A stretch of DNA of 64,000 bases, taken from positions 111 to 64,110 of the forward strand of contig JAFYIE010000103.1 of assembly GCA_017538795.1 (NCBI GenBank), in the 5' to 3' direction. Made by a program: the position numbers and the translations under genes. Every line of letters begins with the position of its first letter. The first letter of the stretch is position 1. The notes under the pieces were generated by a model, which saw nothing but the letters and a program-made list of their open reading frames with translations, was not told the DNA's origin and searched no databases. This document shows positions 41,741-57,097 of the stretch, one piece after another. The stretch comes from Bacteroidales bacterium. Lineage in GTDB: Bacteria; Bacteroidota; Bacteroidia; Bacteroidales; F082.

Positions 41741-41859
41741 AAAAGTTTTTGTTTTACGATGCTCATAAATTTGGTTTCACATCTTCAGTTTTGGTTTCAC
41801 ACTGTTGCAGGTCGGTGGTCCCTACATGAATAAAAGGCTTATGATGTTAAAAAAATGAC

Positions 41860-41867
41860 TATCTTTG
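41860..41867 (+). promoter_or_regulatory. -7 promoter box TATCTTTG
   Basis: Exact TAnnTTTG, 29 nt upstream of the ATG at 41897. It overlaps the 19-bp palindrome TTGTTGTTTGAAACAACAA (41865..41883). Confidence 0.45.
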
Positions 41868-41896
41868 TTGTTTGAAACAACAAAAAAAGTAAAACG

Positions 41897-42811
41897 ATGA
41901 AGATAGTCTTTTTAGAACCGTTGGGACTCACGGTGGAAGCCATTGAGAAGGCTTGTGACAAACTGAAGAAACAGGGGCATGAGGTTGTGGTTTATCCCGA
42001 CAGAAAGCCGGAGTTGAACATAGAACGCGCGGCAGGAGCTGACGTCGTTGTGGAAAGCAACATGCCGTTGCGCAAGGATTTTTTTGACGCATGTCCTAAC
42101 CTGAAAATGCTTTCGATAGCATTTACGGGACTCGATCATATCGATATGGAAGAGTGCAAACGTCGTGACATTGTGGTGAAGAACGCGGCCGGATATTCGA
42201 CTGAGGCGGTGGCGGAAGAGACGATTTGCATGATGATAGGGCTGTACCGTCATGTCATTGAGAATGACAGGATCACACGTAGCTGCAAGGGGTCGTCTAT
42301 TGCTCCTGGATGTGAGATATCGGGGAAGACCGTGGGCATCATAGGAATGGGAGCCATCGGACAGCGTACGGCAGCGTTAGCGCAGGCATTCGGATGCAAG
42401 GTGATTGCGTGGAACCGCACGCCGAAGCAGGTGGCAGGGGTGACGTTTGTTGACAAAGAGACGTTGCTCAAAGAAGCTGATATTGTTGCGTTGCATATCG
42501 CTTTGAATAACGAGACGCGAGACTTTATCACGGCTGCTGACATGGCGAAAATGAAGCCTTCGGCGATATTGGTGAACGCAGCAAGAGGGCCGGTGGTAAA
42601 CACAGCAGACCTTGCGGAGGCGTTGAAGAAAGGTGTTATTGCAGGGGCGGCGCTTGATGTGTATGATGGGGAGCCGCCACTGAATCCTGAAAATCCGATT
42701 TTAACGGCTCCGAATACGATGTTGATGCCTCATGTGGGGTTTGCGACGAAAGAAGCGTTTATTTTGAGACTGGGGATTGTAGTAGGAAATGTAGAGAAAT
42801 TTATTAGTTAA
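41897..42811 (+). CDS. D-isomer-specific 2-hydroxyacid dehydrogenase (glycerate/phosphoglycerate dehydrogenase-like)
   Basis: 304 aa with the NAD-binding motif GIIGMGAIGQRTA and the catalytic Arg/Glu/His pattern (NAARG..., PHVGFAT). Confidence 0.82.
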   Translation: MKIVFLEPLGLTVEAIEKACDKLKKQGHEVVVYPDRKPELNIERAAGADVVVESNMPLRKDFFDACPNLKMLSIAFTGLDHIDMEECKRRDIVVKNAAGYSTEAVAEETICMMIGLYRHVIENDRITRSCKGSSIAPGCEISGKTVGIIGMGAIGQRTAALAQAFGCKVIAWNRTPKQVAGVTFVDKETLLKEADIVALHIALNNETRDFITAADMAKMKPSAILVNAARGPVVNTADLAEALKKGVIAGAALDVYDGEPPLNPENPILTAPNTMLMPHVGFATKEAFILRLGIVVGNVEKFIS

Positions 42812-42852
42812 TCAGTTAGTCAGTTAGGTAAACTGGACAACTGACTAATTGA
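42812..42852. terminator. Bidirectional terminator hairpin built from two opposed AGTT arrays
   Basis: TCAGTTAGTCAGTT (42812..42825) pairs with AACTGACTAATTGA (42839..42852), a 14-bp stem with one G-U pair and a 13-nt loop. It lies between the convergent dehydrogenase and dnaG genes. Confidence 0.65.
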
Positions 42853-42864
42853 TTAACTGAATAA

Positions 42865-44847
42865 CTATTTTGTGATTACGATTCCGAGGTCGCGGTTGAT
42901 TCGGGTGCGGATGTCGTCGAGTTTTTTCTTCTTTTGAAGGAGGATGAGTTGGTCGTCGGGATCGGAGGTTTCCATCAGCTCTTTCACTATGGCGGTGCGG
43001 CGGTCTTCGATAACCATGTCTTTATAGCGTAGGATGGACGTGAGGACGGTCTTTTTCAGGACATCGTCTTCGGTTTTGACAACGATACGGTGACGTTGCC
43101 AGTCGTCGAGTTTATACTGTGTGCTGAGCAGATTGGCGGCTAAGACAGCGACATCTTGATCTTCGCTTGAAGTGAAATCCTGTGCTGTCGGGAGGATGCC
43201 GGTATCGAGGCCACGGTCGTAAGCGTCGAAAATCTTTTTATGGGTCTCGTCGCGGAAAAGAAGTCCGTCGTTTTTAAGGTCGTCGATGATGAGAGAAGCT
43301 ATCGGAGTATTATAAACGACATCGTTATCGTTTTCGTCCTTACCTTCAATCTCTATAGTCTCGTTGCCGTGGGTGAGGAGAAGCTTCACGAGTTCCTGCT
43401 CTTGGAAGAAGCCGATGGGAGGTTGATTTTCAGCCTGCGTATGAGACTGATAGGACGGAGAGGTCTGAGAGGACTCATATGTCTTATATTCCTGATACGA
43501 AAGCTGAGAGTCTTGTTTTGGATCCAATCCTAATTGTTTGCGGTATTTCGCACGGAGGATTTTGTTGACCTCGTTGGTGAGCGTCTGTTCAGCCATCTCG
43601 AGGGTGCGGCTGCATTCTTTGATGTAGGAGGCACGATAGATCGGGTCGGGGATGACGGCGATGGTCTCGACTATGTCTTTGATGACGGTGGCGCGTTTGA
43701 TAGGGTCGTTTTTAGCATCCTTCAGAAGGAGATTCGTCTTGAATCCAATGAAGTCGCGGGCGTTGTCTTCGAGATATTTTGTGACAACTTCGATAGGGTT
43801 GTTTTGTACAAAGCTGTCGGGGTCATCCTCAGGCGGCAGCACCACGATGCGGACGTTCATGCCTTCTTCGAGAATCATGTTGGTGCCACGCAGGGCGGCG
43901 TGAATACCTGCAGCGTCGCCGTCGTAGAGCATGGTGATGTTTTTGGTGTAGCGGCTTATCATGCGGATTTGCTCCGTCGTAAGAGACGTTCCCGAGCTTG
44001 CCACCACGTTTTCAATGCCGGCTTGGTGCATACTCAAGACGTCGGCGTAACCTTCAACCAAGATGCAGTTGTCGAGGCGCGAAATCTCGTTGCGAGCAAA
44101 GAAAATGCCGTAGAGCGTCTGACTTTTGTTGTAAATCTCTGATTCAGGCGAGTTTACGTATTTTGCCTTGGTCTTCTCCTTGGTGAGGATACGTCCGCCG
44201 AAACCTATTACCTTTCCTGTGAGGTTATGAATCGGGAAGATGACGCGGCCTTGGTAGCGGTCGTAGAGACGGTTTTCGTAGCTTCCGGTGAGTCCGACTT
44301 TTATCAAAAGGTCTTTGTCGTAGCCGTTTTTTGTAGCGAATTCGGTGAAGGCCGAGCCGCTGTTGGGGCAGTAGCCGAGCTGGAACTTGTTGATGATGGC
44401 GTCGCGGAAGCCACGTTCGTGGAAGTAGGCGAGGCCGACCGACTGTCCTTCGTCGGAGGTCATCATGATATTGGAGAAGTAGTTTTGCGCGAAGCTGTTG
44501 ATGTTGAACATACGCTCGCGTTCGTTCTGCGCCGCCAGTTCTTCAGGCGTCTGCTCGCGTTCTTCAATCTTGATGCCGTATTTTTTAGCGAGGTAGCGGA
44601 GCGCTTCCTGGAACGAATAATGCTCGTGTTCCATGATGAAACGCACAGAGTCGCCAGCTTTGCCGCAGCCGAAGCATTTGAAGATGTTTCGTGCCGGGTT
44701 GACGTTGAACGACGGTGTCTTCTCCTTGTGGAACGGGCATACTCCGATGAGGTTGGAGCCACGTTTTTTGAGGGTAACGAACTCGCTGACGACGTCTTCG
44801 ATGCGCGCCGTCTCCATGATCTGGTTTATGGTTTCGCGTGGAATCAT
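42865..44847 (-). CDS. dnaG: DNA primase
   Basis: 660 aa with the zinc ribbon CPFHKEKTPSFNVNPARNIFKCFGCG, an RNA polymerase core and a TOPRIM domain (LVEGYADV..DGDAAG). Confidence 0.9.
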   Translation of the reverse strand: MIPRETINQIMETARIEDVVSEFVTLKKRGSNLIGVCPFHKEKTPSFNVNPARNIFKCFGCGKAGDSVRFIMEHEHYSFQEALRYLAKKYGIKIEEREQTPEELAAQNERERMFNINSFAQNYFSNIMMTSDEGQSVGLAYFHERGFRDAIINKFQLGYCPNSGSAFTEFATKNGYDKDLLIKVGLTGSYENRLYDRYQGRVIFPIHNLTGKVIGFGGRILTKEKTKAKYVNSPESEIYNKSQTLYGIFFARNEISRLDNCILVEGYADVLSMHQAGIENVVASSGTSLTTEQIRMISRYTKNITMLYDGDAAGIHAALRGTNMILEEGMNVRIVVLPPEDDPDSFVQNNPIEVVTKYLEDNARDFIGFKTNLLLKDAKNDPIKRATVIKDIVETIAVIPDPIYRASYIKECSRTLEMAEQTLTNEVNKILRAKYRKQLGLDPKQDSQLSYQEYKTYESSQTSPSYQSHTQAENQPPIGFFQEQELVKLLLTHGNETIEIEGKDENDNDVVYNTPIASLIIDDLKNDGLLFRDETHKKIFDAYDRGLDTGILPTAQDFTSSEDQDVAVLAANLLSTQYKLDDWQRHRIVVKTEDDVLKKTVLTSILRYKDMVIEDRRTAIVKELMETSDPDDQLILLQKKKKLDDIRTRINRDLGIVITK

Positions 44848-46205
44848 ATAGCCCAGATTAAGAGTCCGCCGATGATTATTATTCCTGATACGACGAGGTC
44901 GATGAGGCAGAATCCCATGATATCCTTTGCGTTAAGTTTCGCTATGGCGAGAGCCGGGAGAGCCCAGAAAGGCTGGATGAGGTTAGTCCATGCGTCGCCC
45001 CAAGCGATTGCCATTCCTGTGAGTCCGTGGTCGACGTTGAGCGCTTCACCCGCGGCGAACATGATAGGCGCTTGTATTGCCCAGTGGCCGCCGCCGGAAG
45101 GGACGAACATGTTCAGGATGGCAGCGCAAAGGAAAGTATATATTGGATAAGTCGTTGACGTTGAGATGTTTACAAAAGCCTCGCTGACGACGGTTCCGAG
45201 GCAGATGCCTGAGGCGCCGACACCTGTGATGATGCCCATGATGCCCGCGTAGAACGGGAACTGGAGCACTATTCCTGCCGCGCCGCTGACAGATTTTCCG
45301 AAAGAGCGGACGTAGGCGATAGGTGTTTTATGCAAAATGATGCCGAGGAAGAGGAACAGCAGGATCACCGATCCGAGGTCGAAGGCTTTGTGCTTGACGA
45401 ACAGGCTGATTATCAAGAAAGATAGGCCTAAGAGGGCTAATAGGGCGGATAAGATGCGGCTGTTTTCCAATTTCATGGCCGGGGTTGATTGCAGAGGCGC
45501 ATGCGTCGGTACATCGTCCTCTGACAACAATGCAGGGTCGATGGTGACGATGTTGTCGCCTTTAGGGTGCATTGCCGAATTTATTGCTACCAACGCGATG
45601 GTCACAAGAGCCACCATGATGATGTTGTGATAATCGAGGATGGTGTTTGAGATAGGGATGACCGAAGAGATGACGCCGTTGGTGTCTTTTGCCAGTTCGT
45701 TGACGTCGGAGGCCATTTTCAACGGGATGGAACCTGATATTCCGGCGTGCCACACCACGAAGCCGCTGTAGGCTGAGGCGATGAGCAGGCGGTAGTCGAC
45801 GCCCTTAAGTTTTTTCGCTATCTCTTTGGCGAAGATGGCGCCCACGATGAGGCCGAAGCCCCAGTTGAGCCAGCATGCCACGGCAGAGATGCCTGTCACG
45901 AGAGCGATAGCGCCGGCAGGTGTTTTCGGCAGAGACGCGAGTTTGTTGATAAACTTTTTGATAGAAGGAGTTGCCGCCAGTGTAGCGCCTGTCACGAGGA
46001 CGAGAGCCATCTGCATCGAGAAACCGAGCAAGTTCCACACGCCACCGCCCCAGTTGCTCACCACTTCGGTGATGCTCTGGTGACATACCGGCATTGCGAC
46101 CAGGATGGCCACAAACGTTAAAATTATCGCAAAGATAAACGGCTCAGGCAGGTATTTCTGCATGAAAGACACACAACCGTTTATTATTTTCTGGAAGAAT
46201 TTCAT
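44844..46205 (-). CDS. atoE: Short-chain fatty acid transporter (AtoE family)
   Basis: 453 aa and polytopic. The N-terminus (FMQKYLPEPFIFAIILTF) and overall pattern fit the AtoE/TIGR00366 family. It has ATGA overlaps with both neighbours. Confidence 0.72.
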   Translation of the reverse strand: MKFFQKIINGCVSFMQKYLPEPFIFAIILTFVAILVAMPVCHQSITEVVSNWGGGVWNLLGFSMQMALVLVTGATLAATPSIKKFINKLASLPKTPAGAIALVTGISAVACWLNWGFGLIVGAIFAKEIAKKLKGVDYRLLIASAYSGFVVWHAGISGSIPLKMASDVNELAKDTNGVISSVIPISNTILDYHNIIMVALVTIALVAINSAMHPKGDNIVTIDPALLSEDDVPTHAPLQSTPAMKLENSRILSALLALLGLSFLIISLFVKHKAFDLGSVILLFLFLGIILHKTPIAYVRSFGKSVSGAAGIVLQFPFYAGIMGIITGVGASGICLGTVVSEAFVNISTSTTYPIYTFLCAAILNMFVPSGGGHWAIQAPIMFAAGEALNVDHGLTGMAIAWGDAWTNLIQPFWALPALAIAKLNAKDIMGFCLIDLVVSGIIIIGGLLIWAI

Positions 46206-47506
46206 TCTACAATAATTTTAATTGTTTTCTTCAGGCCGTCGGCGTTTGTAATGTTAAGGAAATACAAGCCTTTCTGAAGATCTTCGACAGGGATGACATA
46301 TTCGCTGAGGCTGTCGTCGACAAAAATGTTGTCGGAATACACCAGTTGTCCTAAAGTATTGAACAACAATATATTAGCTTTTCCGAAACTATCCTGATAG
46401 AACCTGATGTTTAATTCTTTTGAAGCCGGATTAGGGAAGATGTCGTAGCTTAATTCGTTGGTTGTCAGTTCGTTGACATCTTCGTTGAGATATGCGACAA
46501 GTTCCATGGTTACCGGGATGTGGTCGGAGTTACCGAAGAGAGCGTCGGCCACATCTTGCGAAACGGCGTAGTTTGTCGGGTTGTTGATGCTTTTGTTGAA
46601 GCGTCGGCCGTCGTTGCCGAGGGCGTTGTAGCTGCCGCCGACGTAGCGGATGCCGTCGCGGCCGCCGTAGATGTTTTCCGACATCAGGATAAAGTCGAAG
46701 CGGTCGTCCATGCCGCCTGAAGAGTGGCAGTCGCTGTCGTTGTCTTTATGTGTCGACTGGGTGTGATATTCAGCGTAGCTGCCGTTGTTGTTCCATGCGC
46801 CGACTCCGTAAGGGTAAAGCGGGTCGATGAAGTAAGAGTTCGGGTAAGCTGTTTGGTTTGTGAGTGCCTGATAGGCGTCTTCCGCTGAAGTGTAAAGGTT
46901 GAAATCGCCCATGATGAGGACGTTTCTTTCGCGGTAGTTACTTTCCAGATATCTCATGGTGTTTTCGGCCATGATTTTGCGTTTTCCTTCATTGTCGGTG
47001 CCTGTTCCCGCCTTGAGATGAGCTATGACGCACGTCAGGGTTATATGTCCGGAGTCGTCGTTTTTGAACTTGAAGTCGTAAACGTCGACGTCGCGGGTAT
47101 AGGTTTGAGCCACATAATGACCGGTCAGCGTCAGTTTTGTCGAGTTATAGAAGATGCAGTTGATGAGCGACGATGAGTTGCCGGTGTTGGAGCCAGCGCT
47201 CGTCATCCAATAGTTCAATCCATTGATGTTCAATACGTTACTGACAAAATCGTTAGGCAGAGAAGTGCTTCTTCCCATCTCGCAGACGGTGAGGATATCG
47301 GGATAGTAGGCGGTTAAGATAGTTCTGATATAACCGTTTTTATCGTTGATATTGTTGTTTGTGGTATTGCAATAGCCGGTGTTGTTGCCATAGTTCAAAA
47401 GGTTATACTGCATCACTTTCAGCGTGTCGTTTTGGGCTGATAGTGAGATGGTGAATCCTAATAGGATTAATGGAATTAGCAGGATTAATGCAATCTTTTT
47501 CATCAT
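46202..47506 (-). CDS. Secreted endonuclease/exonuclease/phosphatase (EEP) family protein with T9SS C-terminal domain
   Basis: 434 aa with a signal peptide. The EEP motifs are LKVMQYNLLNYG, DILTVCEM, IMGDFN and SDHIPV. The CTD is IFPNPASKELNIRF...KTIKIIVE. Confidence 0.8.
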   Translation of the reverse strand: MMKKIALILLIPLILLGFTISLSAQNDTLKVMQYNLLNYGNNTGYCNTTNNNINDKNGYIRTILTAYYPDILTVCEMGRSTSLPNDFVSNVLNINGLNYWMTSAGSNTGNSSSLINCIFYNSTKLTLTGHYVAQTYTRDVDVYDFKFKNDDSGHITLTCVIAHLKAGTGTDNEGKRKIMAENTMRYLESNYRERNVLIMGDFNLYTSAEDAYQALTNQTAYPNSYFIDPLYPYGVGAWNNNGSYAEYHTQSTHKDNDSDCHSSGGMDDRFDFILMSENIYGGRDGIRYVGGSYNALGNDGRRFNKSINNPTNYAVSQDVADALFGNSDHIPVTMELVAYLNEDVNELTTNELSYDIFPNPASKELNIRFYQDSFGKANILLFNTLGQLVYSDNIFVDDSLSEYVIPVEDLQKGLYFLNITNADGLKKTIKIIVE

Positions 47507-47524
47507 GGCAACAACTTTATATTA

Positions 47525-48700
47525 TTATTCGATACGTTTGAGCATGCTTATCTCGGCGCTGGTGAGGAAACGCCAGTGGCCGCGTGGCAGGTTCTGTTTG
47601 GTGAGGCCTGCGAGCATGACGCGATCGAGTTTTGTCACTTCGTAGCCGAGGCTTTCGAAGATACGGCGCACGATGTGGTTACGTCCCGAGTGGATCTCGA
47701 CGCCGACTTCGCGCATTGTAGGGTCGTCGGTGACGTAGTCGATTTTGTCGACCTCGATAGGGCCGTCTTCGAGCATGAGACCGTTCTGAATTTTTTCGAA
47801 GTCTTTGGTTGTCAAAGGCTTGTTGAGTGTGACGTGATACAACTTCTTAACCTCGTGGCTTGGGTGAGTGAGAGTCTTAGCCAGTTCGCCGTCGTTGGTG
47901 AGCAGCAGCAGTCCGATGGTGTTACGGTCGAGGCGGCCGACAGGGTAGATACGTTCCTGGCATGCCCCTTCGACGAGGTCCATCACGGTGTGGCGCTCGT
48001 ATGGGTCGTCGCTTGTGGTGATGACGCCTTTAGGCTTGTTGAGAAGCACATAACGAAGCTTTTCGCGGTTGAGAGCCTGTCCGCCGTACACCACTTTGTC
48101 GGTTGTTTTTACCTTTGTGCCGAGTTCTGTCACCACCTGGCCGTTCACTGTCACAGCGCCGGCTAGGATGAGGTCGTCGGCTTCGCGGCGTGAGCATATG
48201 CCAGAGTCGGCGAGGTATTTGTTGAGACGGATCTCGCCAGTAGCGCGTGGACGGTCGAACTCCGGGTCTTTCTCTCTTCTGTAGCCACGACGGCCGCCTC
48301 TTGCCGGACGTTCCTCGTCACGGTCAAAGCGCTTGCCGAAAGGTTTTTTGTCGCCAAAAGGCTTTCTTGCACCGCGTTCTTCGCGCTCTTCTTTATTAAA
48401 TGATCTTCTGCCGAAAGGCTTCTTTTCGTTACTTTCGTCATCGTTTCTTCTCGAAAAACCACGTCTTGCAGGTTTACGGTCGTCACGACCGAATGATTTT
48501 CTTTCACTTCTCTCGTCATCACGACGACCAAAGCTTCTTTTTTCGCCGAAAGGTTTTCTTTCATGGCGTTCATCATCGCCCTCGCGGCGAGCTTTTTCTT
48601 TTGCAAACTGCTCTAATCTCTCGTCACTGAATCTTCTGACTTCGGCAGTTTTTCTTCTGGCAACGTGTTGACGTTTGCCGCTTCTTTCTTCGTTATTCAT
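47525..48700 (-). CDS. Pseudouridine synthase (RsuA/RluB family) with a roughly 155-aa basic repeat extension at the N-terminus
   Basis: 391 aa. It has an S4 domain (IRLNKYLADSGICSRREADDLI) and the catalytic motif YPVGRLDRNTIGLLLLTNDG. The N-terminus is rich in R/K/E/D with KPFG and SFG repeats. Confidence 0.85.
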   Translation of the reverse strand: MNNEERSGKRQHVARRKTAEVRRFSDERLEQFAKEKARREGDDERHERKPFGEKRSFGRRDDERSERKSFGRDDRKPARRGFSRRNDDESNEKKPFGRRSFNKEEREERGARKPFGDKKPFGKRFDRDEERPARGGRRGYRREKDPEFDRPRATGEIRLNKYLADSGICSRREADDLILAGAVTVNGQVVTELGTKVKTTDKVVYGGQALNREKLRYVLLNKPKGVITTSDDPYERHTVMDLVEGACQERIYPVGRLDRNTIGLLLLTNDGELAKTLTHPSHEVKKLYHVTLNKPLTTKDFEKIQNGLMLEDGPIEVDKIDYVTDDPTMREVGVEIHSGRNHIVRRIFESLGYEVTKLDRVMLAGLTKQNLPRGHWRFLTSAEISMLKRIE

Positions 48701-48748
48701 TGTTAAAAAATAATTATAATATAAATTTGGGCTGCAAAATTACAAAAA

Positions 48749-48783
48749 AGTTAGGAGTTAGGAGTTAGAAGTTAGAAGTTTTT
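48749..48783 (+). repeat. AGTT-core heptamer array, 5 units with an exact 7-bp period
   Basis: AGTTAGG AGTTAGG AGTTAGA AGTTAGA AGTTTTT, with cores at 48749, 48756, 48763, 48770 and 48777. It ends 4 nt before a -7 box. Confidence 0.8.
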
Positions 48784-48787
48784 TTTG

Positions 48788-48795
48788 TATTTTTG
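48788..48795 (+). promoter_or_regulatory. -7 promoter box TATTTTTG for the S8 protease gene
   Basis: Exact TAnnTTTG. It overlaps the TTG used as the start in the ORF track (48793), which favours the ATG at 48817. Confidence 0.45.
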
Positions 48796-48816
48796 CAAAG
48801 TATTAAAAGTTGTTAT

Positions 48817-50460
48817 ATGAAAAAGTTATCATTACTTCTTATTATGGTGGTGTCTGCGATAGTTATGCAGGCGCAGATTGCTACAAACATTTATTGGGTG
48901 AAGTTTACCGACAAGAACAATTCACCTTATTCTATCGACAACCCGAGCGAATATCTGAGCCAGAGGGCTTTGGAACGCCGCGCGCGTTTAGGCATCGAGA
49001 TTGACGAATACGACATCCCTGTGAACCCGCAGTATTTGCAGGCAGTCGCCGATTGTGGAGCGCAGCTCTTGAATCCTTCGAAATGGTTGAACGGAGTGTC
49101 GATTTACACCACCAGCCAGAGTGTGGTTGACGCTATCAATCAATTGGAATTTGTAGAGGTGGTGCGTAATTGCCCTGATTATCCTGAAGCTCAGCGCGAC
49201 AAGGAAATTTGGATGGAGAACGAGATGAAAGCATCGGGAAGTCCGGTGGTGTCAAGAGGTTATTACGGAGGTGCTGAGGTGCAGGTTAATCAACTGAGAG
49301 TAAATGAGTTGCATGAAATGGGATTTGATGGAACGGGCATTCATATCGCTGTTTTGGATGGTGGTTTCATAGGTACTGACATTCACCACACTTTTGACAA
49401 TATGCGTGAGGAAGGCCGTTTGCTTGGCGTTCGCGACTTTGTATATGGTTCAGGATCAGTGTATTCGCAGAGCACACACGGCACTTCATGCTTAAGTACC
49501 ATTGCCGCCTATGACCCAAACAATATGGTGGGAACGGCTCCTAAAGCATCGTTTTATCTGTTCCATACCGAAGACGGAAATGGTGAAAATATTGTTGAGG
49601 AATACAACTGGGTGTCGGGTGCTGAATTAGCTGATTCTCTTGGCGTTGACGTTTGTTCGACATCTTTGGGATACATTGATTTCGACATGCCACAGTGGGA
49701 TCATTATTTCCCGGATTATGACGGTCACACCGCTCCTATGAGTATTGGTGCTGAGATTGCCGCAAGCCGTGGAATGATATGTACAAACGCGGCCGGCAAT
49801 GAAGGCGGTGGCACATGCACTTTGGGAATTCCGGCAGACGCTGAGCATATCATCACTGTCGGAGCTGTCGATGATCAAGGCGATCGTGCTGATTTCAGCT
49901 CGGTGGGACCTACCTACGACGGTCGTATCAAACCCGACGTGATGGCGATGGGTCAAGGCACCTACGTGGCATCTGGTAATCCAGGCGGTTGGTATGGTGA
50001 CTATTACAACGGCAACGGCACCTCGTTCGCCAACCCGGTGTTGGCCGGTGCGGTGGCATGTCTACGTCAAGCAAGACCAAACGCTTCAGTACAGGAAATT
50101 TGCGACGCTGTGAGAATGGCGGGTGACAATGCAAACAATCCGAACAGCTACGATGGCTATGGTATCCCTGATTTCGTGATGGCATTACAAATACTTGATG
50201 TTGAGGAAGTTGTGATTGGTGAGAATGAAATCGTCAGCGTGTATCCTAATCCTTCGAAAGGCAATGTTAATGTGACATTAAAAGAAGGCGTTGACAGAGT
50301 CAATATGACAGTGTACGACAATATAGGACGTATGATTGTTAACACAATGAATGTTAATGAGTTAGAAATTGCTTTGAACAATTTGAATTCGGGAATTTAC
50401 ACTGTCAGTGTGGTTTCGGAAAATGGCAGTCAGACGCTGAAAGTTGTCATAACGAAGTAA
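48817..50460 (+). CDS. Secreted subtilisin-like serine protease (S8) with T9SS C-terminal domain
   Basis: Signal peptide MKKLSLLLIMVVSAIVMQAQ. The catalytic triad contexts are AVLDGGF, STHGTSC and GNGTSFANP. The CTD is VYPNPSKGNVNVTL...LKVVITK. Confidence 0.85.
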   Translation: MKKLSLLLIMVVSAIVMQAQIATNIYWVKFTDKNNSPYSIDNPSEYLSQRALERRARLGIEIDEYDIPVNPQYLQAVADCGAQLLNPSKWLNGVSIYTTSQSVVDAINQLEFVEVVRNCPDYPEAQRDKEIWMENEMKASGSPVVSRGYYGGAEVQVNQLRVNELHEMGFDGTGIHIAVLDGGFIGTDIHHTFDNMREEGRLLGVRDFVYGSGSVYSQSTHGTSCLSTIAAYDPNNMVGTAPKASFYLFHTEDGNGENIVEEYNWVSGAELADSLGVDVCSTSLGYIDFDMPQWDHYFPDYDGHTAPMSIGAEIAASRGMICTNAAGNEGGGTCTLGIPADAEHIITVGAVDDQGDRADFSSVGPTYDGRIKPDVMAMGQGTYVASGNPGGWYGDYYNGNGTSFANPVLAGAVACLRQARPNASVQEICDAVRMAGDNANNPNSYDGYGIPDFVMALQILDVEEVVIGENEIVSVYPNPSKGNVNVTLKEGVDRVNMTVYDNIGRMIVNTMNVNELEIALNNLNSGIYTVSVVSENGSQTLKVVITK

Positions 50461-50498
50461 AATTTTTGCGAAAACGTTTGGAATTGTTAAATAATTCA

Positions 50499-50506
50499 TA
50501 TCTTTG
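50499..50506 (+). promoter_or_regulatory. -7 promoter box TATCTTTG for the oxidative-stress cluster
   Basis: Exact TAnnTTTG, 21 nt upstream of the ATG at 50528. Confidence 0.45.
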
Positions 50507-50527
50507 TAGTTCAAAAATTTTAAAATT

Positions 50528-51508
50528 ATGGATTTAACTACATCATATCTCGGATTAAAACTTAAGAATCCTATTGTTGTCGGAAGTTCGACTTTTACCG
50601 GAACCGTTGAAGGCATAGTGAATTGTGCTAAGGCAGGCGCTGGCGCTGTGGTGCTCAAGTCGCTTTTCGAGGAGCAGATTTTGTCGGATATCAAGAAAGA
50701 AGAAGGCTACACCGATATTTATAATTCAAATCCTGATGCCGATTTGTATATGAAGACTTTCCTTCGCGGAAACGAGATTGCGATTTATGAAAATCTTATC
50801 CGTGAGGCAAAGAAAAGCGTCGATATCCCGATTATCGCTAGCATCAACTGCGCCGACAAAGGCGAGTGGACAAGCTTCGCCAAGGAGCTTCAGGATGCGG
50901 GTGCTGACGCCCTCGAACTGAATATCTCGGTTTCTCCTTTTGACAAGGATATGGCATCGAAAAATATTGAGGATGAAGTAGTTAGCATCTTTAATGAGGT
51001 GAAAAAGACAGTGACGATACCAGTGTCGGTGAAGCTTGGAAATCATTTTACCAACATTGGCAACATCGCTTTCCGTTTGTCGATGGCAGGCGCGGCAGGC
51101 TTGGTGCTCTTCAACCGTTTCTACAACCCGACAATCGACATCGAGAACATGAAGGTTGTCCCGGGTTCGGCGCTTTCTGTGGAAGAGGAGAACAGCGACA
51201 CTTTGAGATGGATCTCGTTGCTTTCGGCGCAGGGCATCCCTTGCTGCCTCTCGGCTTCGACAGGTGTTCATAAGGCGGAAGACGTGGTGCGCCAACTGCT
51301 TGCGGGCGCGACTACAGTGCAGGTGTGCAGCACCTTGTATCGCAACGGCGTGAAACATGTCGCTGATTTGGTGGCAGGTTTGGAAGCCTGGATGAAGAAA
51401 CACAACTTCAACAACATTGGCGAGTTCAAAGGAAAATGCAGCGCTTCGGCCGATGTGAAAGTATTTGAGAGACTGCAATATTTGAGAAGAAACAATGATT
51501 TAAATTAA
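50528..51508 (+). CDS. Dihydroorotate-dehydrogenase-like flavoprotein (PyrD-family TIM barrel)
   Basis: 326 aa. The N-terminus (LGLKLKNPIVVGSS...AGAGAVVLKS) and the distribution of Gly-rich FMN-binding segments resemble class-1 DHOD-like proteins. The substrate is unknown. Confidence 0.68.
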   Translation: MDLTTSYLGLKLKNPIVVGSSTFTGTVEGIVNCAKAGAGAVVLKSLFEEQILSDIKKEEGYTDIYNSNPDADLYMKTFLRGNEIAIYENLIREAKKSVDIPIIASINCADKGEWTSFAKELQDAGADALELNISVSPFDKDMASKNIEDEVVSIFNEVKKTVTIPVSVKLGNHFTNIGNIAFRLSMAGAAGLVLFNRFYNPTIDIENMKVVPGSALSVEEENSDTLRWISLLSAQGIPCCLSASTGVHKAEDVVRQLLAGATTVQVCSTLYRNGVKHVADLVAGLEAWMKKHNFNNIGEFKGKCSASADVKVFERLQYLRRNNDLN

Positions 51509-51526
51509 CCTTTAATAATTATTACT

Positions 51527-51685
51527 ATGGCAAAATACGTATGTGACGTCTGCGGTTATGTTTATGACCCGGCAGTTGGCGATCCGGACAACGGCATCGC
51601 TCCAGGAACACCATTCGACAAATTACCGGAAAGCTGGTCATGCCCACTTTGCGGTGTCGGAAAAGAACACTTCGGACTTGAATAG
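51527..51685 (+). CDS. Rubredoxin (52 aa; below the ORF-track cutoff)
   Basis: My own translation is [52 protein letters not shown]. It has both the CxxCG and CPxCG iron-binding knuckles. Confidence 0.88.
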
Positions 51686-51774
51686 TTAGGAGTTAGAAGT
51701 TAGCAGTTGTTCAGTTAGTCAGTTGATAGTTGACAATTGATAGTTGACAGTTAGCAATTTAAAGTTAGAAGTTA
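51684..51774 (+). repeat. AGTT-core tandem array, 13 units, filling the whole rubredoxin-Hrb spacer
   Basis: AGTT/AATT cores fall at 51684, 51691, 51698, 51705, 51713, 51721, 51728, 51735, 51742, 51749, 51756, 51763 and 51770. The period is 7 bp, with two 8-bp steps. The array starts inside the TAG stop and ends at the ATG. Confidence 0.85.
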
Positions 51775-52383
51775 ATGGATACAAAGGCTCTTTCAAAAAT
51801 AGGATACGGTCTTTATGTCCTGACGACGAACTACGATAACATCGACAATGGCTGCATCATCAACACGGTGCAGCAGGTGACAAGCGAGCCGCTGAGGTTG
51901 TCGATAGTTGTCAACAAGAAAAACTACACGCACGATCTCATTTTGGACTCGTGCGTGTTCAATATCAACGTGTTGACGACGGAGACACCGTTTAAGGTGT
52001 TTGAGCATTTCGGGTTTCAGTCGGGAAGGAACGTGAACAAGTTCGCTGGTTGCGAGCAGGAGCTTCGCGCCGTGAACCATGTGCTGTATCTGCCGAGATA
52101 TATCAACGCATATTTCGCATGCAGAGTTGTGAAGTCGGTAGATCTCGGCACCCACACCATGTTCATCGCCGATGTGCTCGACGCGGTGAATGTTAATGAC
52201 TTAGACTCAGTCACCTACGATTATTATCAGAAAAACATCAAGCCGAAGAAGAAGGTGACGAAGGGCTGCTGGGTGTGCAAGGTCTGCGGCTGGGTGTATG
52301 AAGGCGAGCAGCTGCCTGATGACATCGTGTGCCCGCTGTGCAAGCACGGGAAGGAAGAGTTTGAGTACGTGGAGCCGACGTGA
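51775..52383 (+). CDS. Flavin-reductase-domain / rubredoxin-domain fusion (high-molecular-weight rubredoxin, Hrb-like)
   Basis: 202 aa. The N-terminal flavin reductase-like domain (YGLYVLTT...GCIINTV) is followed by a C-terminal CWVCKVCGWVYEG...CPLCKHGKEEFE rubredoxin knuckle pair. Confidence 0.8.
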   Translation: MDTKALSKIGYGLYVLTTNYDNIDNGCIINTVQQVTSEPLRLSIVVNKKNYTHDLILDSCVFNINVLTTETPFKVFEHFGFQSGRNVNKFAGCEQELRAVNHVLYLPRYINAYFACRVVKSVDLGTHTMFIADVLDAVNVNDLDSVTYDYYQKNIKPKKKVTKGCWVCKVCGWVYEGEQLPDDIVCPLCKHGKEEFEYVEPT

Positions 52384-52440
52384 AGAGAAGAGTTAGAAGT
52401 TAGTAGTGAGAAGTTAGAAGTTAATCAGTTAAATAGTTTT
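52384..52440 (+). repeat. AGTT-core tandem array, about 8 units, filling the whole Hrb-FDP spacer
   Basis: AGAGAAG AGTTAGA AGTTAGT AGTGAGA AGTTAGA AGTTAATC AGTTAAAT AGTTTTAAT, then ATG. Confidence 0.8.
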
Positions 52441-52443
52441 AAT

Positions 52444-53628
52444 ATGAAAATACAGTTAGTGGAAAATATTTATTACGTGGGGGTGAATGACCGCCGCACG
52501 GAGATGTTTGAGAACCACATGGAGTTGCCGAATGGTGTGTCGTATAACTCGTATCTTATTGTAGATGATAAGGTTGCGTTGATCGACCCGGTGGAGCCGG
52601 AGTTCATGGCGCAGTATATGTTTCAGATCAAGCGCATCTTGGGCGACCGCAAAGTCGACTACCTGATTGTGAACCACGACGAGCCGGATCACAGCGGCTC
52701 GGTGGGAGCGGTGTTGAGAGAATGGCCTGAGGTGACGGTTGTCGGAAATGCCAAGACTTTCGCGCCATTGGAGAACTTCTACGGTGCCATCGCAAACAAG
52801 AAAATCGTGGCTGAAGGTGAGACGTTGAGTCTTGGAAAGCACACACTGCAGTTTTTTATGGCTCCGATGTGTCACTGGCCTGAGTCGATGGCGACATACG
52901 AGCAGAGCACGAAGATCATCTTTTCGAACGACGCTTTCGGAGGTTTCGGTGCTTTGAATGGCGGCATCTTCGACGACGAAGTGAATCTCGATTTTTACGA
53001 GGACGACATGCGCCGTTACTATGCCAACATCGTCGGAAAGGTAGCGATGATGGCGCTGAAGACTATCCAGAAAGTAGGCACCCTCGACATCAAGATGATT
53101 GCTCCATCGCATGGATTGATTTGGAGAAGCAACCTTCAATGGGTCGTTGAGCGTTACACTGCATGGAGTTTGCAGCAGGCCAAAGAAGGCGTGGTTATCG
53201 TGTATGGCTCGATGTACGGCAACACCGGCAGAATGGCTGATATAGTGGCAAGAGGCGTGGCAGACGCCGGCGTCAAAGAGATCAAGGTGTACGACGTGTC
53301 GAAGACGGAGACGTCGTTCATTTTCAGCGACATCTGGAAATACAAAGGCGTTATTTTAGGAGCCTGCTCGCACTACGGCAGCATCTTCCCTAACATGACA
53401 GGACTGCTTCACGAGTTGGCCGAGTACAAGCCACAGAACAAGGTGTTCGGTCTGTTTGGCGGCGCATCGTGGAGCGGAGGCGGTCTCAAGACATTGAAAG
53501 AAAACGCTGAAGCATGCAAGTGGAACATCGTTGGCGAGCCTGTCGAGGTGAAGGGAGCGCCGATTAGAGAGGAAGACATTGAAAAGCTTTATAATCTCGG
53601 TCTCGAAATTGGTAAAAACTTAAAATAA
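52444..53628 (+). CDS. Flavodiiron protein (rubredoxin:oxygen/NO oxidoreductase, FprA/ROO type)
   Basis: 394 aa. The metallo-beta-lactamase-like diiron domain (NHDEPDHSG) is followed by a C-terminal flavodoxin domain (VVIVYGSMYGNT). Confidence 0.9.
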   Translation: MKIQLVENIYYVGVNDRRTEMFENHMELPNGVSYNSYLIVDDKVALIDPVEPEFMAQYMFQIKRILGDRKVDYLIVNHDEPDHSGSVGAVLREWPEVTVVGNAKTFAPLENFYGAIANKKIVAEGETLSLGKHTLQFFMAPMCHWPESMATYEQSTKIIFSNDAFGGFGALNGGIFDDEVNLDFYEDDMRRYYANIVGKVAMMALKTIQKVGTLDIKMIAPSHGLIWRSNLQWVVERYTAWSLQQAKEGVVIVYGSMYGNTGRMADIVARGVADAGVKEIKVYDVSKTETSFIFSDIWKYKGVILGACSHYGSIFPNMTGLLHELAEYKPQNKVFGLFGGASWSGGGLKTLKENAEACKWNIVGEPVEVKGAPIREEDIEKLYNLGLEIGKNLK

Positions 53629-53634
53629 AGAATT

Positions 53635-54210
53635 ATGATTGAATTACCGAAATTACCGTATGCTTTGGACGCACTAGCGCCGCATATCTCGCAAAAGACA
53701 TTAGAATTTCACTATGGCAAGCATCACAACGCCTATGTGAACAACTTGAACAAACTCATCGTTGGCACTCCGTTTGAGAACAAAACGCTTGAAGAGATAG
53801 TGAAGACTACGCAGGGAGGCATGTTCAACAACGCTGCTCAGGTGTGGAACCACACTTTTTACTGGAACTGCATGACGCCGAATCCGAAAAAAGCTGCTCC
53901 GGAAGGCAAACTCATGGAAGCCATAGTGCGTGACTTCGGAAGCTTCGACGCTTTTAAAGAGAAGTTTATCAATGCTTGCGTGACGTTGTTTGGCTCAGGA
54001 TGGGCTTGGCTTGTTGCCGACAAAGACGGAAAGCTCTCGATAGTGCAGACTTCAAACGCACAGACGCCTCTGACAGAAGGCCTGAAGCCGCTGTTGGTGT
54101 GCGACGTGTGGGAGCACGCATACTATCTGGATTACCAGAACCTTCGTGCCAACTACGTGAACGAGTTCTGGGCAATAATTAACTGGGAGTTTGTAGAATC
54201 AAATTATTAG
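53635..54210 (+). CDS. sodB: Fe/Mn superoxide dismutase
   Basis: 191 aa with LPKLPYALDALAPHIS..EFHYGKHH and DVWEHAYYLDYQN. Confidence 0.92.
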   Translation: MIELPKLPYALDALAPHISQKTLEFHYGKHHNAYVNNLNKLIVGTPFENKTLEEIVKTTQGGMFNNAAQVWNHTFYWNCMTPNPKKAAPEGKLMEAIVRDFGSFDAFKEKFINACVTLFGSGWAWLVADKDGKLSIVQTSNAQTPLTEGLKPLLVCDVWEHAYYLDYQNLRANYVNEFWAIINWEFVESNY

Positions 54211-54212
54211 TA

Positions 54213-55337
54213 CTAATAACTTTCTATAGTTTCAAGTTCCTGATAATAAATCTGCGGAACTTCCTCGTGATAATCTCTGCTGTAAAAGTCGGCCGGTTTT
54301 AACAATTTTCCGAACACAAAATCCTGAATGAGCACGAACTCGTTGCCTTCGCTGAGGAGCGCGTATTTGTGGTCAGGATCCTTAATCATATCGTCGAAAT
54401 TGTTGATATCTTCTTCAGAATAGTCGTACATATCAGCGTTGGCGCGCATGTTATATGTGGTGACGCTGACGCTTTTGCCGTCTTTGGTGGTGAGTGTCAG
54501 GCGTTGTTGAAAAGGCGAGTTGATGATAGAATCGCGTCTCTCCGGCTTGATATCGTCGAGGAACGCCTCAAAACGCACGTTGTTGAACGACGACATGAGG
54601 TTCAGAACTCTCAAAGTGTCGAACTCCACAGGCTGTCCGTTGAGACGGCTCATGGTATACTGGTAGCGCCCGTTTTCATTGATGATGAAGCCATTATCCG
54701 GGTCGTTGTAGATCTCAAGTTTCAGCGACTTAATGTTTCCTAGCTGTTCGTTGAAGATTAGATGATCGCGCCAGTCGGTAGGGTTGGCGGTAAAACGTGA
54801 GCTGATGAAGCCTCTCAAACCGTTGAGATGAGCAATGAAGACTTTGTCGGAGCCTTCTTTCAGGACGTAGGTGCCCATGTTGTCGCGCGTAACGTTGCCA
54901 ATATAAAACACCTTGCTGCATTTCTCGTGATAGAATAGTTTTACCTTGTTGAAGAGGTTGATGCGCGGCATCATCTGGTAGATCTCCACCTTGGTGTTGG
55001 TGCTCGACATACGGGTGATGATACCATCGCTTTTCTTGTTCGATACAGGCATCTTGATTCTCATGCGGTTTAATGTGTAGAGAATCTTGTTAATCATCTT
55101 TTGTGACGCCGGAAACTCGTCGTTGACGATCCAACAGCTGTCGGTGCGGCGCAGAAGCACCTGGTTGCCACTTTTGTCGGCAAGGAACAGCTTGGTGATG
55201 CTGGCGGTGTCGTAGACGGTGAAATCCGACGCCTCGTCGTTCAAAGTGCTGAGATAGCTGTTGTTTCCGATGAGGATGCCCGCGATGACGAGAAGCACGA
55301 GAGCAATCACTATTGCGATGGTGTTATTTTTTTTCAT
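54213..55337 (-). CDS. Membrane-anchored protein downstream of gldG (DUF4340-like)
   Basis: The start is taken at the ATG at 55337 (MKKNNTIAIVIALVLLVIAGILIG), which forms an ATGA overlap with the gldG stop. The longer ORF-track start at 55427 would overlap gldG by 94 nt. The family call is from gene context and topology only. Confidence 0.5.
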   Translation of the reverse strand: MKKNNTIAIVIALVLLVIAGILIGNNSYLSTLNDEASDFTVYDTASITKLFLADKSGNQVLLRRTDSCWIVNDEFPASQKMINKILYTLNRMRIKMPVSNKKSDGIITRMSSTNTKVEIYQMMPRINLFNKVKLFYHEKCSKVFYIGNVTRDNMGTYVLKEGSDKVFIAHLNGLRGFISSRFTANPTDWRDHLIFNEQLGNIKSLKLEIYNDPDNGFIINENGRYQYTMSRLNGQPVEFDTLRVLNLMSSFNNVRFEAFLDDIKPERRDSIINSPFQQRLTLTTKDGKSVSVTTYNMRANADMYDYSEEDINNFDDMIKDPDHKYALLSEGNEFVLIQDFVFGKLLKPADFYSRDYHEEVPQIYYQELETIESY

Positions 55338-57097
55338 CTTGTAAATTTTTTCTTTCTTAAAATAGCGAGAACTATTCCTAAAATTATCATGATGGCGCTT
55401 GGCAAAATCACGTTGACGACCTGCCACAGCGTCGGGTTGTCGTTGACTTTATTCATGTCGAGAAGCCGTATCTTAAGCTCTCGCGAACGGATATTGATGA
55501 GGCCGTCGCCCTCGAGGAGATAAGAGATGGCGTTTTCAATAAACTGCTTGTTGCCGTAGGTGTTGTTGGTGTATTGGTCGTAGCCCAACGGCAGCGGTGA
55601 GCCGACGCGTTTGTTGTTTTTCTTGGCGTAGTCGAGTTGCGCCAGCTGGTTGCGGATGATGTCACCGTCGGCGATGACGATCATGGAGGTGTTGGCGCTC
55701 TCTGTCTTGAAACCTATCTCCGACGAGTTTGTTATCTCGACAGGCATGCGGTTCTCGTAAAGCGAATGGAACACTCCGTTGAGGAGATATGCCGTCATGA
55801 TGCCTTTTTGTGGAAACATGCTTGCGCTCGGGCGCTGGTTCAAGATATCCAGCGAGATGTAAACTGGCGCGCTCGACACCTTGGTGTAATCAGATGTCTT
55901 CAGAAGCGGTATCTTCTGAATCTCAGGTGCTGATGTCGTTGGCTCCAAAGAGCTTACGAAGTCTGCCTTCACCGCTTCGAGGTTTCTCACGATAGGATGT
56001 TCCGATGCCGGACTGAGCAGCGGGAAATAATACCAAGGCAGGAGTATGCTCTGCATGTTGTTGCCTTGTCCGGTGACGAGTCCGATTTGTGCGCACGGAT
56101 AGGAGAGAAGCAGGTTCTTGTTCATGCGCAGTCCGTATTTGAAGAGCTGGTCGTCGAGGTTTAGGTTGAGCGCCAGTCCCATGGTGGATTCGGCGTTCTG
56201 CAGGCTGTCCATCGAGGCGCTGACAGGATCGAGGAGCCACATCACCTTGCCGCCGTACATGATGTACTGGTCGATAATGAACTTGTCTTTTTCGGAGAAC
56301 GGGATGGTAGGTTTCGCGATGATGATAGCATCGTAAGAAGGCTTGATGACGATGTTGCTGTCGCGGTCGAAGTCTCTCTTCATCAACGAGTTAATTTGTT
56401 CGTTGAGCGTGGTGCGTTTGATGAAGTATTTCTTCGAGATGGCGTTGGCGATGTCGTAAACCTCGAGGTCGCTGAGCTCGCCGTGACCGTCGACGAATGC
56501 CACGGTAGCCCTGTTCTTCGTAGAAATTTCTTTTATCGCGCTGATGAGCTTGTATTCAAGATCTTGAGCCGAGTTGTTTAGCACGGCCTCCTGACTTTGT
56601 CCCGACTGTCCCGAAAGGAGGTCGATAGGCAGTTCGTTCTCGCGGTAACTCAGGATGATGCCTGGCCAAATCATGATTTGCTGCAATCCGGTGTTGGTCT
56701 GAACCGTCTCGGTGTAATAATTCAAGCCGCTTTGATAAAGGATCTTATACGTCTCCTGACGTTCTACAGGGTCGTTGCTTTCCGACGGGTTAATGAATTC
56801 ATAGTCAATGAATTTGCTGTAGGCTCGGAACTCGTCGAGCATCTCTTTCGTCTCCTTGCGGAGCTTTTTGAAGCCTGCCGGGAACTCGCCTTCAAGATAA
56901 ACACGGAAGAAGACGTAGTCGTCGAGGTTCTTCAAGATGTCTCTCGAGGTGTTGGAGATGGTGTAGCGTTTCTCGGAAGTGAGGTCGAGACGGGTGTAGA
57001 CAAACGAGCCTATAATGTTTATCAACACAATGATTATCAATGTGATAACCAAAGATGTGATTTCGTTGCGTTTGATATTTTTTCTCTTGTTTTCCAT
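55334..57097 (-). CDS. gldG: Gliding-motility-associated ABC transporter accessory protein GldG
   Basis: 587 aa with an N-terminal TM, the motif RLDLTSEKRYTISNTS, a large extracytoplasmic domain and a C-terminal TM. It lies directly downstream of gldF. Confidence 0.78.
   Translation of the reverse strand: MENKRKNIKRNEITSLVITLIIIVLINIIGSFVYTRLDLTSEKRYTISNTSRDILKNLDDYVFFRVYLEGEFPAGFKKLRKETKEMLDEFRAYSKFIDYEFINPSESNDPVERQETYKILYQSGLNYYTETVQTNTGLQQIMIWPGIILSYRENELPIDLLSGQSGQSQEAVLNNSAQDLEYKLISAIKEISTKNRATVAFVDGHGELSDLEVYDIANAISKKYFIKRTTLNEQINSLMKRDFDRDSNIVIKPSYDAIIIAKPTIPFSEKDKFIIDQYIMYGGKVMWLLDPVSASMDSLQNAESTMGLALNLNLDDQLFKYGLRMNKNLLLSYPCAQIGLVTGQGNNMQSILLPWYYFPLLSPASEHPIVRNLEAVKADFVSSLEPTTSAPEIQKIPLLKTSDYTKVSSAPVYISLDILNQRPSASMFPQKGIMTAYLLNGVFHSLYENRMPVEITNSSEIGFKTESANTSMIVIADGDIIRNQLAQLDYAKKNNKRVGSPLPLGYDQYTNNTYGNKQFIENAISYLLEGDGLINIRSRELKIRLLDMNKVNDNPTLWQVVNVILPSAIMIILGIVLAILRKKKFTR

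Follow-up and report, generated by a model that had tools for sequence, protein, structure and literature searches.

The stretch analyzed here, referred to as the window, comprises 64,000 nucleotides (nt) of contig JAFYIE010000103.1 from an uncultured Bacteroidales bacterium and carries an oxidative-stress operon in the order rubredoxin–Hrb–flavodiiron–superoxide dismutase (SOD), in which Hrb is a flavin-reductase/rubredoxin fusion protein. The spacers on both sides of Hrb consist of short tandem units built on an AGTT core with a period of about 7 nt, and arrays of this type occupy 10–11 loci in the 64 kb, nine of them intergenic or at the ends of open reading frames (ORFs). The operon junctions are laid out as follows.

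51527..51685: rubredoxin ORF, ending in the stop codon TAG
51684..51774, plus strand: 13-unit array with AGTT or AATT cores, running from the rubredoxin TAG stop to the Hrb ATG at 51775
52384..52443, plus strand: AGAGAAG followed by seven to eight AGTT-core units, filling the gap from the Hrb TGA to the flavodiiron ATG at 52444

A prior inspection of the letters alone (the sequence-only reading) had claimed that arrays occupy both operon spacers entirely, and the sequence agrees: the rubredoxin–Hrb spacer (51686..51774) is 89 nt long and wholly array, the Hrb–flavodiiron spacer is 60 nt long, and neither contains an ATG. Units 1–7 of the first spacer are, in order, AGTTAGG, AGTTAGA, AGTTAGC, AGTTGTTC, AGTTAGTC, AGTTGAT and AGTTGAC, followed from unit 8 onward by AATTGAT, AGTTGAC, AGTTAGC, AATTTAA, AGTTAGA and AGTTA.

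The arrays greatly exceed chance. Tandem Repeats Finder (TRF) detected nine period-7 arrays of at least 3.5 copies in the window (3.6–4.9 copies each) and none in 100 dinucleotide-preserving shuffles, and the pattern (AGTTNNN)4AGTT with up to two mismatches gave 12 matches compared to 0 expected. The comparison with shuffled intergenic DNA that had been proposed as a check placed the array count far above expectation, with six arrays of at least four units compared to 0.006 expected when the shuffle was confined to the 3,334 nt of intergenic DNA in the window (28.5% G+C). Arrays take up 390 of these 3,334 nt (~12%), and all ten sites named by the sequence-only reading contain the AGTT-core arrays that it described. 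Assembly or chimera artefacts are an extremely improbable source. The window and its closest matches do come from metagenome assemblies, in which short tandem repeats can mis-assemble, but identical arrays were present in three independent metagenome assemblies (L001–L003), with unit-step variants in others, and related arrays were found in assemblies from ENA, JGI, Logan and NCBI. The same array type is carried by isolates such as Chishuiella changwenlii DSM 27989 and Nostoc sp. NIES-4103, and the arrays are at most 95 nt long, shorter than a sequencing read.

The units are less regular than the strict 7-bp period and invariant core first ascribed to them. Several are 8 nt long (AGTTGTTC, AGTTAGTC, AGTTAATC and AGTTAAAT), and the repeats at 1581..1637 and 41034..41068 are both degenerate, with TRF matches of 70–78%. 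At position 2, 38 units have G and 3 have A; at position 4, 38 have T and 3 have G. Most of the variation is carried by positions 5–7, with A1, T3 and T4 near-constant across independent loci and lineages. On the sense strand, C makes up 7 of the 287 bases in units, and a stop codon is present in 38 of the 41 window units. The view that the arrays at gene boundaries are not relics of coding repeats was supported.

The operon was compared across lineages with Hrb 71–100% identical to that of the window; the nearest named Hrb homologs belong to metagenome-assembled genomes (MAGs) labelled 'Bacteroidales bacterium'. The rubredoxin–Hrb spacer takes the following forms.

L128, L259, L262 and L266: 7 nt, TCTGGTC, TAA stop, no array
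L258 (Hrb 97% identical): 31 nt, (AGTTTAG/AGTTTAA)4
L268 and L270: 34 nt, AGTTAGTC units
L004 (Hrb DNA near-identical, two differences): 52 nt, AGTTAGC units
L126 and L125: 88 and 95 nt, respectively, with AGTTGAC, AATTGAC and AATTGAT units
Window: 89 nt, mixed units
Outgroups with Hrb 79% or 71% identical: 15 nt or 11–18 nt, respectively, no array

Across seven lineages with Hrb at least 92% identical, unit numbers at this junction are 0, 4, 4, 7, 12–13 and 13. The length steps correspond to whole units, amounting to 37 nt between the window and L004 (3 × 7 + 2 × 8) and to 7 nt between L125 and L126. Every array-bearing lineage uses a TAG stop, the AG of which opens the first unit. The Hrb–flavodiiron spacer is equally variable, as L125 and L258 have five different units plus a hairpin element and L128 has no array. 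Within the syntenic 20 kb, two of the four window arrays are common to L125 and none to L128. L128 and L129 encode identical Hrb proteins, yet have different heptamers at the convergent SOD/DUF4340 junction: (TAGTCTT)3 in L128 (12500..12560), where two same-direction arrays are present, and (TAGCCAT)n with an inverted copy in L129 (12500..12600). At the same junction L125 has opposed arrays (12575..12620), and in the window the two stops are 2 nt apart (54205..54220) and form the palindrome TTAGTACTAA. Given this spacer variation and the array-free relatives, the arrays are lineage-specific, hypervariable and dispensable to the operon. Of the leader, processing or binding functions entertained by the sequence-only reading, a required one is made less likely by the relatives with Hrb at 92–95% amino-acid identity, which keep the operon with a 7-nt array-free spacer. 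At the rubredoxin–Hrb junction the stop-proximal end varies between lineages and the ATG-proximal end is common, as would be expected if turnover were concentrated at the 5′ end, which the window, L004 and L125 hint at when compared, or if the region by the start codon were constrained; in L258, the sequence just before the Hrb ATG is wholly different from that of the window.

Two further observations concern these spacers. L004 (1..849), compared to window positions 51640..52460, is near-identical in Hrb DNA (its two differences lie at the 5′ end) and identical in the Hrb–flavodiiron spacer, with a rubredoxin 3′ end that has diverged at many sites and a different array, which suggests a putative recombination breakpoint at or near the array. 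Separately, the window contains a perfect 28-nt inverted repeat, AGGTTCCTCGCTGCGCTCGGAATGACAG, with arms at 24311..24338 and 24437..24464 and 98 nt between them, in a 766-nt stretch without an ORF of at least 110 amino acids (aa). The same motif, as GAGATTCCTCGC...GCTCGGAATGAC, is the hairpin element of the relatives' Hrb–flavodiiron spacers (L125 10652..10690, L258 and L268), and a degenerate copy of the AGGTTCCTCGCTGCGCTCGGAATGACAG motif is located at 10692..10782 of the window. To judge from these copies, the motif looks like a small dispersed family of palindromic elements resembling miniature inverted-repeat transposable elements or repetitive extragenic palindromes (REP).

As RNA, the direct arrays are unstructured, purine/U-rich and C-poor. 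Their minimum free energies (MFEs) range from −3.6 to −4.4 kcal/mol with z scores of +0.5 to +1.9 (MFE −3.9, z +0.5 for the Hrb–flavodiiron spacer), and the 13-unit rubredoxin–Hrb array gave an MFE of −17.4 kcal/mol with a z score of −0.8, which is not significant. No Rfam family matched at the gathering threshold across the whole window, and ARAGORN detected no tRNA or tmRNA genes in it. A structured RNA was dismissed on the basis of the missing Rfam match and of direct arrays that fold no better than shuffles. A selected three-frame stop cassette was likewise dismissed as a general function, as the stop content of the G-rich strand of 198 independent heptamer arrays is at the composition expectation (122 versus 124.8). 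The host had been taken to be poor in Shine–Dalgarno (SD) sequences, and this is borne out: the genome belongs to an uncultured Bacteroidales bacterium, and its phylum is reported to be without SD sequences (PMC6847099). Initiation in Bacteroidetes is tuned by mRNA structure instead of SD, and the ribosomes are reported to disregard SD sequences and to rely on unstructured leaders (PMC6847099, PMC7797042). Of the idea that the arrays are unstructured purine-rich leaders, the lack of structure holds, and a required leader role is weakened by the array-free relatives.

The explanation that we favor, with moderate confidence, is that these are simple-sequence arrays driven by slippage, which build up where non-coding space is free and serve at most as tunable unstructured spacers. 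Arrays would arise and be remodelled rapidly in the non-coding DNA of this uncultured Bacteroidales lineage, probably through slipped-strand mispairing or unequal exchange between units. They would persist only where an insert with a 7-nt period is harmless, namely past stop codons (often using or supplying the stop), between cistrons, between a stop codon and its terminator hairpin or between a terminator and the next promoter. In the rubredoxin–Hrb–flavodiiron–SOD operon, the gaps would have grown from the 7–18 nt of array-free relatives to 60–95 nt. Because the direct arrays are C-poor, free of AUG and of structure and closed in all frames within 21 nt, they would most likely, if they have any effect, act as an expandable single-stranded spacer. 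A spacer of this kind would be tolerated by such ribosomes. It could keep the termination of one cistron apart from the SD-independent initiation of the following one, and its length may shift the expression ratios of neighboring cistrons stepwise by unit. Opposed arrays form a terminator-like hairpin, which may act as a terminator between convergent genes. The close lineages provide a natural experiment, in which one oxidative-stress operon has 0, 4, 7 or 13 units at the same junction.

Elsewhere in the window, the following arrays were located.

1581..1637, minus strand: degenerate array beginning in the TAG stop of ORF 1636..3375 (minus strand)
4296..4333, minus strand: five-unit array (AGTTTAA, AGTTTAG, AGTTGAA twice and AGTTTAT) at the end of ORF 4304..5305 (minus strand)
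10826..10860, minus strand: array of four to five units (AGTTTAT, AGTTTAA, AGTGTAA and AGTTTAA), detected by TRF
41034..41068, plus strand: degenerate GTTAG-core heptamer array (TRF period 7, 4.4 copies, 70% matches)
41100..41127, plus strand: four-unit array (AGTTAGA, AGTTAGT, AGTTAGA and AGTTGCG) immediately past the T-run of a terminator
42806..42864, both strands: two opposed short arrays between the convergent genes for a 2-hydroxyacid dehydrogenase (plus strand) and DnaG (minus strand)
48749..48783, plus strand: five-unit array (AGTTAGG twice, AGTTAGA twice and AGTTTTT) flanked by divergent promoters
63585..63622, minus strand: five-unit stop-free array (AGTTTGG, AGTTTGA, AGTGTGA, AGTTTGG and AGTTTTT) inside an AraC-family ORF

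Seven of the 11 arrays are sense to the upstream gene and begin in or beside its stop codon (1581..1637, 4296..4333, 41034..41068, both halves of 42806..42864 and both operon spacers). Past the array at 1581..1637 come a hairpin (z −2.5 for this part of the fold), a T-run, a TAnnTTTG box at 1543 and then the following gene. The array at 4296..4333, unstructured as RNA (z +1.35), provides the final ~9 codons (HSLKFRVES) and the TGA stop of ORF 4304..5305, which we take, on impression only, to resemble aspartate-semialdehyde dehydrogenase; the predicted C-terminal tail of this ORF is rewritten by the repeat. The degenerate array at 41034..41068 lies directly 3′ of the TAA stop of a 2,783-aa ORF and 5′ of an intrinsic-terminator hairpin at ~41069..41099 (GGGGCUUCCGAAAGGGGGCCC, then a U-run). 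Each half of 42806..42864 is sense to its adjoining gene, and together the halves form a hairpin with a ~20-bp stem and fold z scores of −6.8 on the plus strand and −7.1 on the minus strand. These opposed arrays are not conserved in L125 or L128.

Three arrays (48749..48783, 10826..10860 and 41100..41127) lie at TAnnTTTG boxes, the motif by which promoter boxes were located, or past a terminator. The first is flanked by a minus-strand box at 48742 and a plus-strand box at 48788 and is missing at the orthologous site in L125, L128/L129 and L132. The second is antisense to a plus-strand gene starting at 10894 and sits directly upstream of the TAnnTTTG box of that gene (10864). A sigma-70 promoter/terminator scan was uninformative for a Bacteroidales genome and gave 13 terminator-like matches compared to 14.5 expected. 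Arrays so placed might be DNA-level elements, either phased sites for nucleoid or transcription proteins or UP-like modules for the adjacent promoters, a possibility that we consider improbable. It can be likened to the TTTTGAT heptads of the Vibrio cholerae ctxAB promoter, which are protein-bound (bioRxiv 10.1101/2021.05.14.444153), and to the heptamers upstream of Nostoc recO and recF, the deletion of which changed promoter-reporter output in Nostoc and Escherichia coli (bioRxiv 10.1101/2022.06.06.494920). All three window arrays abut TAnnTTTG-type boxes or sit just upstream of them, the same layout is found in L147, L248 and L240, and three units make 21 bp, or two helical turns. However, seven of the 11 window arrays are past stops or between cistrons and not at promoters, the promoter-adjacent arrays are not kept in relatives, both orientations are found at promoters, and the units differ widely between loci and strains.

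The array at 63585..63622 runs antisense within the AraC-family ORF 62231..63976 and encodes the linker SQKLQTSHFKLQTRA, which joins a hydrophobic, membrane-helix-like segment to a C-terminal part with a Pfam HTH_18 match. Three heptamers make 21 nt, or seven codons, and the array corresponds to a 7-aa tandem peptide repeat, NSKLQT(P/Q), that AraC-family homologs at ~80% identity (P0122..P0196) retain in the linker. An array within a reading frame, together with the whole-unit length polymorphism between strains, would be expected of contingency loci, in which reversible gain or loss of units switches or tunes expression as in phase variation. With 7 not being a multiple of 3, the change of a single unit would shift the frame, and phase variation based on simple sequence repeats is established in other bacteria (PMC12721329; PMC4679880, introduction). 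We nonetheless regard contingency loci as a distinctly unlikely explanation. None of the arrays falls between −33 and −7 elements, the linker encoded by the in-ORF array is conserved and has indel lengths divisible by 3, and the genes concerned serve housekeeping or the oxidative-stress response and do not specify surface structures. Phase variation of the AraC-family gene itself was rejected: its homologs keep NSKLQT in frame, and no frameshifted variants were found at the array. Length differences among the homologs are mostly at N-terminal start calls, and truncated entries are not broken at the array. Contingency repeats and the ctxAB heptads thus share with the window arrays a unit number that varies between strains and, in some cases, a position next to promoters; the window arrays differ in lying outside promoter spacers, in showing no signs of frame switching and, compared to the ctxAB heptads, in having no known binding protein.

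The sequence-only reading had not recognized the arrays as a described repeat class. Tandem heptanucleotide arrays are known as short tandemly repeated repetitive (STRR) heptanucleotides, long simple sequence repeats (LSSRs) and TAACTGA repeats (PMC4679880 for the latter two). Classified by sequence, the window arrays are heptanucleotide simple-sequence arrays of the STRR/LSSR type, as they consist of tandem 7-nt units in at least three copies at dispersed, mostly non-coding loci, are above chance and show unit-step polymorphism. Cyanobacterial STRR were reportedly described by Mazel et al. in 1990, and heptanucleotide arrays have been known in cyanobacteria since then. Besides the 7-nt tandems at many dispersed intergenic loci, the unit-step variation between strains and the want of an established function, the likeness to STRR extends to the same (AGTTAGN)n arrays in Nostoc, Calothrix, Rivularia and Richelia, among others. 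The window differs in its host, a gut or rumen-type Bacteroidales bacterium, and in units that are mixed within one array (AGTT core, variable tail) and in some cases 8 nt long. The classical STRR1–3 units (CCCCAGT, TTGGTCA and CAACAGT) have no tandem copies in the window. Heptanucleotides are the commonest LSSR category according to the summary of Mrazek et al. (2007) given in PMC4679880.

The closest published description is that of TAACTGA direct repeats in Beggiatoaceae, 15 Cyanobacteria and five Bacteroidetes, by which heptamer repeats were noted in a few Bacteroidetes in 2015 (PMC4679880). These repeats are mainly intergenic and near start codons, and 7-nt indels at heptamer repeats separate Cyanothece strains. 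In Flexibacter litoralis, forward TAACTGA sets are located 1–43 nt upstream of starts, and the sole stop-adjacent set is reversed (PMC4679880). The window arrays resemble them as intergenic heptamer direct repeats by starts and stops in SD-poor contexts, with a distribution over Cyanobacteria and Bacteroidetes, and their core AGTTA is the reverse complement of TAACT, although this 5-nt core is all that is common. The exact TAACTGA unit forms no tandem in the window and occurs there as eight single copies, five of them inside arrays. In contrast to TAACTGA repeats, the window units are mixed instead of uniform, and the sense strand mostly reads AGUUA just past stops and not UAACUGA just before starts. 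Forward TAACTGA upstream of a start was not found in the window; in the wider sample described below, TAACT-sense arrays are located 8–60 nt before starts. REP elements, bacterial interspersed mosaic elements and clustered regularly interspaced short palindromic repeats (CRISPR) are also short intergenic repeats at many loci, but the window units are non-palindromic and arranged head to tail without spacers at a 7–8-nt period, with no Rfam match. No paper that names these very units, AGTTAGG among them, was found in the literature search.

The wider distribution was assessed by a scan for AGTTAGNAGTTAGNAGTTAGNAGTT with one genome per GTDB species, which yielded 120 listed matches (L138..L257) that constitute a sample and not a census; the counts that follow, including those of the polarity analysis, are among these matches. 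About 62 are cyanobacterial, mostly from heterocystous genera (Nostoc, Rivularia, Calothrix and Richelia), and 31 are Bacteroidota loci with (AGTTAGN)n arrays. The latter include rumen and gut Bacteroidales MAGs, Prevotella, Paludibacteraceae, Muribaculaceae, Alistipes and Alloprevotella; the Flavobacteriia Chishuiella, Chryseobacterium, Croceitalea, Euzebyella and Flavobacterium; and Hymenobacter. The rest are a few other members of the Fibrobacteres–Chlorobi–Bacteroidetes group, ~10 gut Firmicutes MAGs and ~12 others. The arrays are nearly all intergenic (1 of ~107 lies within an ORF), and the intergenic regions that bear them often hold several different heptamer arrays in series. In a Bacteroidales MAG from yak rumen (L190), intercistronic spacers consist entirely of AGTTAGC units. 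As a side observation, at least 120 viral contigs of IMG/VR (L005..L124), giant-virus MAGs included, carry exact (AGTTNNN)4AGTT arrays.

The arrays had been described as usually following the orientation of the downstream gene. The listed matches show no overall bias of this kind, with sense-to-antisense ratios for tandem gene pairs of 14:10 in Bacteroidota and 25:24 in Cyanobacteria, and the rule fails in the window at 10826..10860, which is antisense to the gene that it precedes, and at 63585..63622, which is antisense within an ORF. The orientation of the window arrays is better described relative to the upstream gene. Among the matches, the beginning of a sense array falls within −20 to +8 nt of the upstream stop, and 65–650 nt separate such arrays from the next start, whereas antisense arrays keep a distance of at least 34 nt from the upstream stop and mostly lie 8–60 nt before the downstream start. 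Between convergent genes, the array is sense to the adjoining gene in 13 of 14 cyanobacterial and seven to eight of nine Bacteroidota cases. Polarity was then scored for the period-7 TRF arrays of the 120 loci, each oriented by its G-rich strand, by the presence of a stop codon within 10 nt of either side.

Bacteroidota, seeded-type units: stop on the 5′ side in 15/21, on the 3′ side in 0/15
Bacteroidota, other units: stop on the 5′ side in 7/21, on the 3′ side in 1/19
Cyanobacteria, seeded-type units: stop on the 5′ side in 21/34, on the 3′ side in 0/28
Cyanobacteria, other units: stop on the 5′ side in 25/34, on the 3′ side in 2/53

In both phyla, the G-rich, C-poor strand of stop-abutting arrays is the mRNA sense strand, a pattern that appears to be new and with which both the forward sets upstream of starts and the reversed stop-adjacent set of F. 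litoralis agree. The opposite, C-rich-sense orientation is found near downstream starts or promoters; in the Bacteroidota antisense examples L147 and L248, the array is located between a terminator hairpin and a −33/−7 promoter. Because both strands of AGTTAGN arrays contain stops in all three frames, the polarity rule is no ORF-calling artefact for these arrays.

Several observations count against the account of neutral slippage that we favor. The dependence of position on orientation is not predicted by neutral slippage alone, and deletion of heptamers upstream of Nostoc recO and recF altered reporter output (bioRxiv 10.1101/2022.06.06.494920). The stable core suggests core constraint or a templated process, an argument that is partly circular because the units were split by the core itself. 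In addition, the 30 nt directly preceding the Hrb ATG match at every position (30/30) between the window and L125, although the genes of the two are 81–90% identical.

A rival proposal is that the arrays are RNA cis-elements read by a single-strand-binding factor with a footprint of ~7 nt, such as ribosomal protein S1, a cold-shock-domain protein or similar. The arrays would then define a post-transcriptional regulon or provide landing pads for ribosomes in SD-poor phyla. We judge this proposal rather unlikely. It would account for a constant core with a variable tail, for polarity relative to stops and starts in two phyla and for the 30-nt identity before the Hrb ATG, and it is in line with arrays that are single-stranded as RNA and, in both operon spacers, reach the ATG. 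MacGregor's own model for the TAACTGA repeats is of this kind (PMC4679880). The predominance of Cyanobacteria and Bacteroidota among the listed matches also speaks for it. These are, to our knowledge, the two phyla that use SD least. Against an RNA-binding factor, close relatives are without arrays at the same junctions, and L258, with Hrb 97% identical, has its wholly different 31-nt array before the same ATG. Several arrays are located upstream of promoters or past terminators and are perhaps not transcribed with a gene, the distance of 65–650 nt to the next start codon applies to most sense arrays, and no binder is known for such arrays in any organism. A broader version, in which the arrays are polar cis-elements read in a ~7-nt register by a conserved trans-acting factor, either a single-strand-binding protein or a ribosome component, strikes us as doubtful. 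If it were true, the factor would control post-termination events, namely ribosome release or re-initiation, 3′-end formation or ribosome loading, and the core sequence would co-evolve with the binding factor in each lineage.

The two-phylum polarity rule provides a testable handle for distinguishing neutral slippage products from elements read by the cell. The window extends heptanucleotide arrays to uncultured gut or rumen-type Bacteroidales, which can give ~12% of their intergenic DNA to them. As hypervariable loci, the arrays can serve as markers for strain typing, and they are a gene-calling hazard because they supply stop codons and C-terminal tails.

Repeats of another kind are found in the two giant ORFs of the window, 26276..32566 (2,096 aa) and 32682..41033 (2,783 aa), which hold in-frame hexanucleotide and 12- and 18-nt coding repeats (AACCCG, CCAGGT, CGACGG and AATCCG). 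The GC skew is +0.11 to +0.19 over 40001..56000, where genes are on both strands, and near zero elsewhere in the window.

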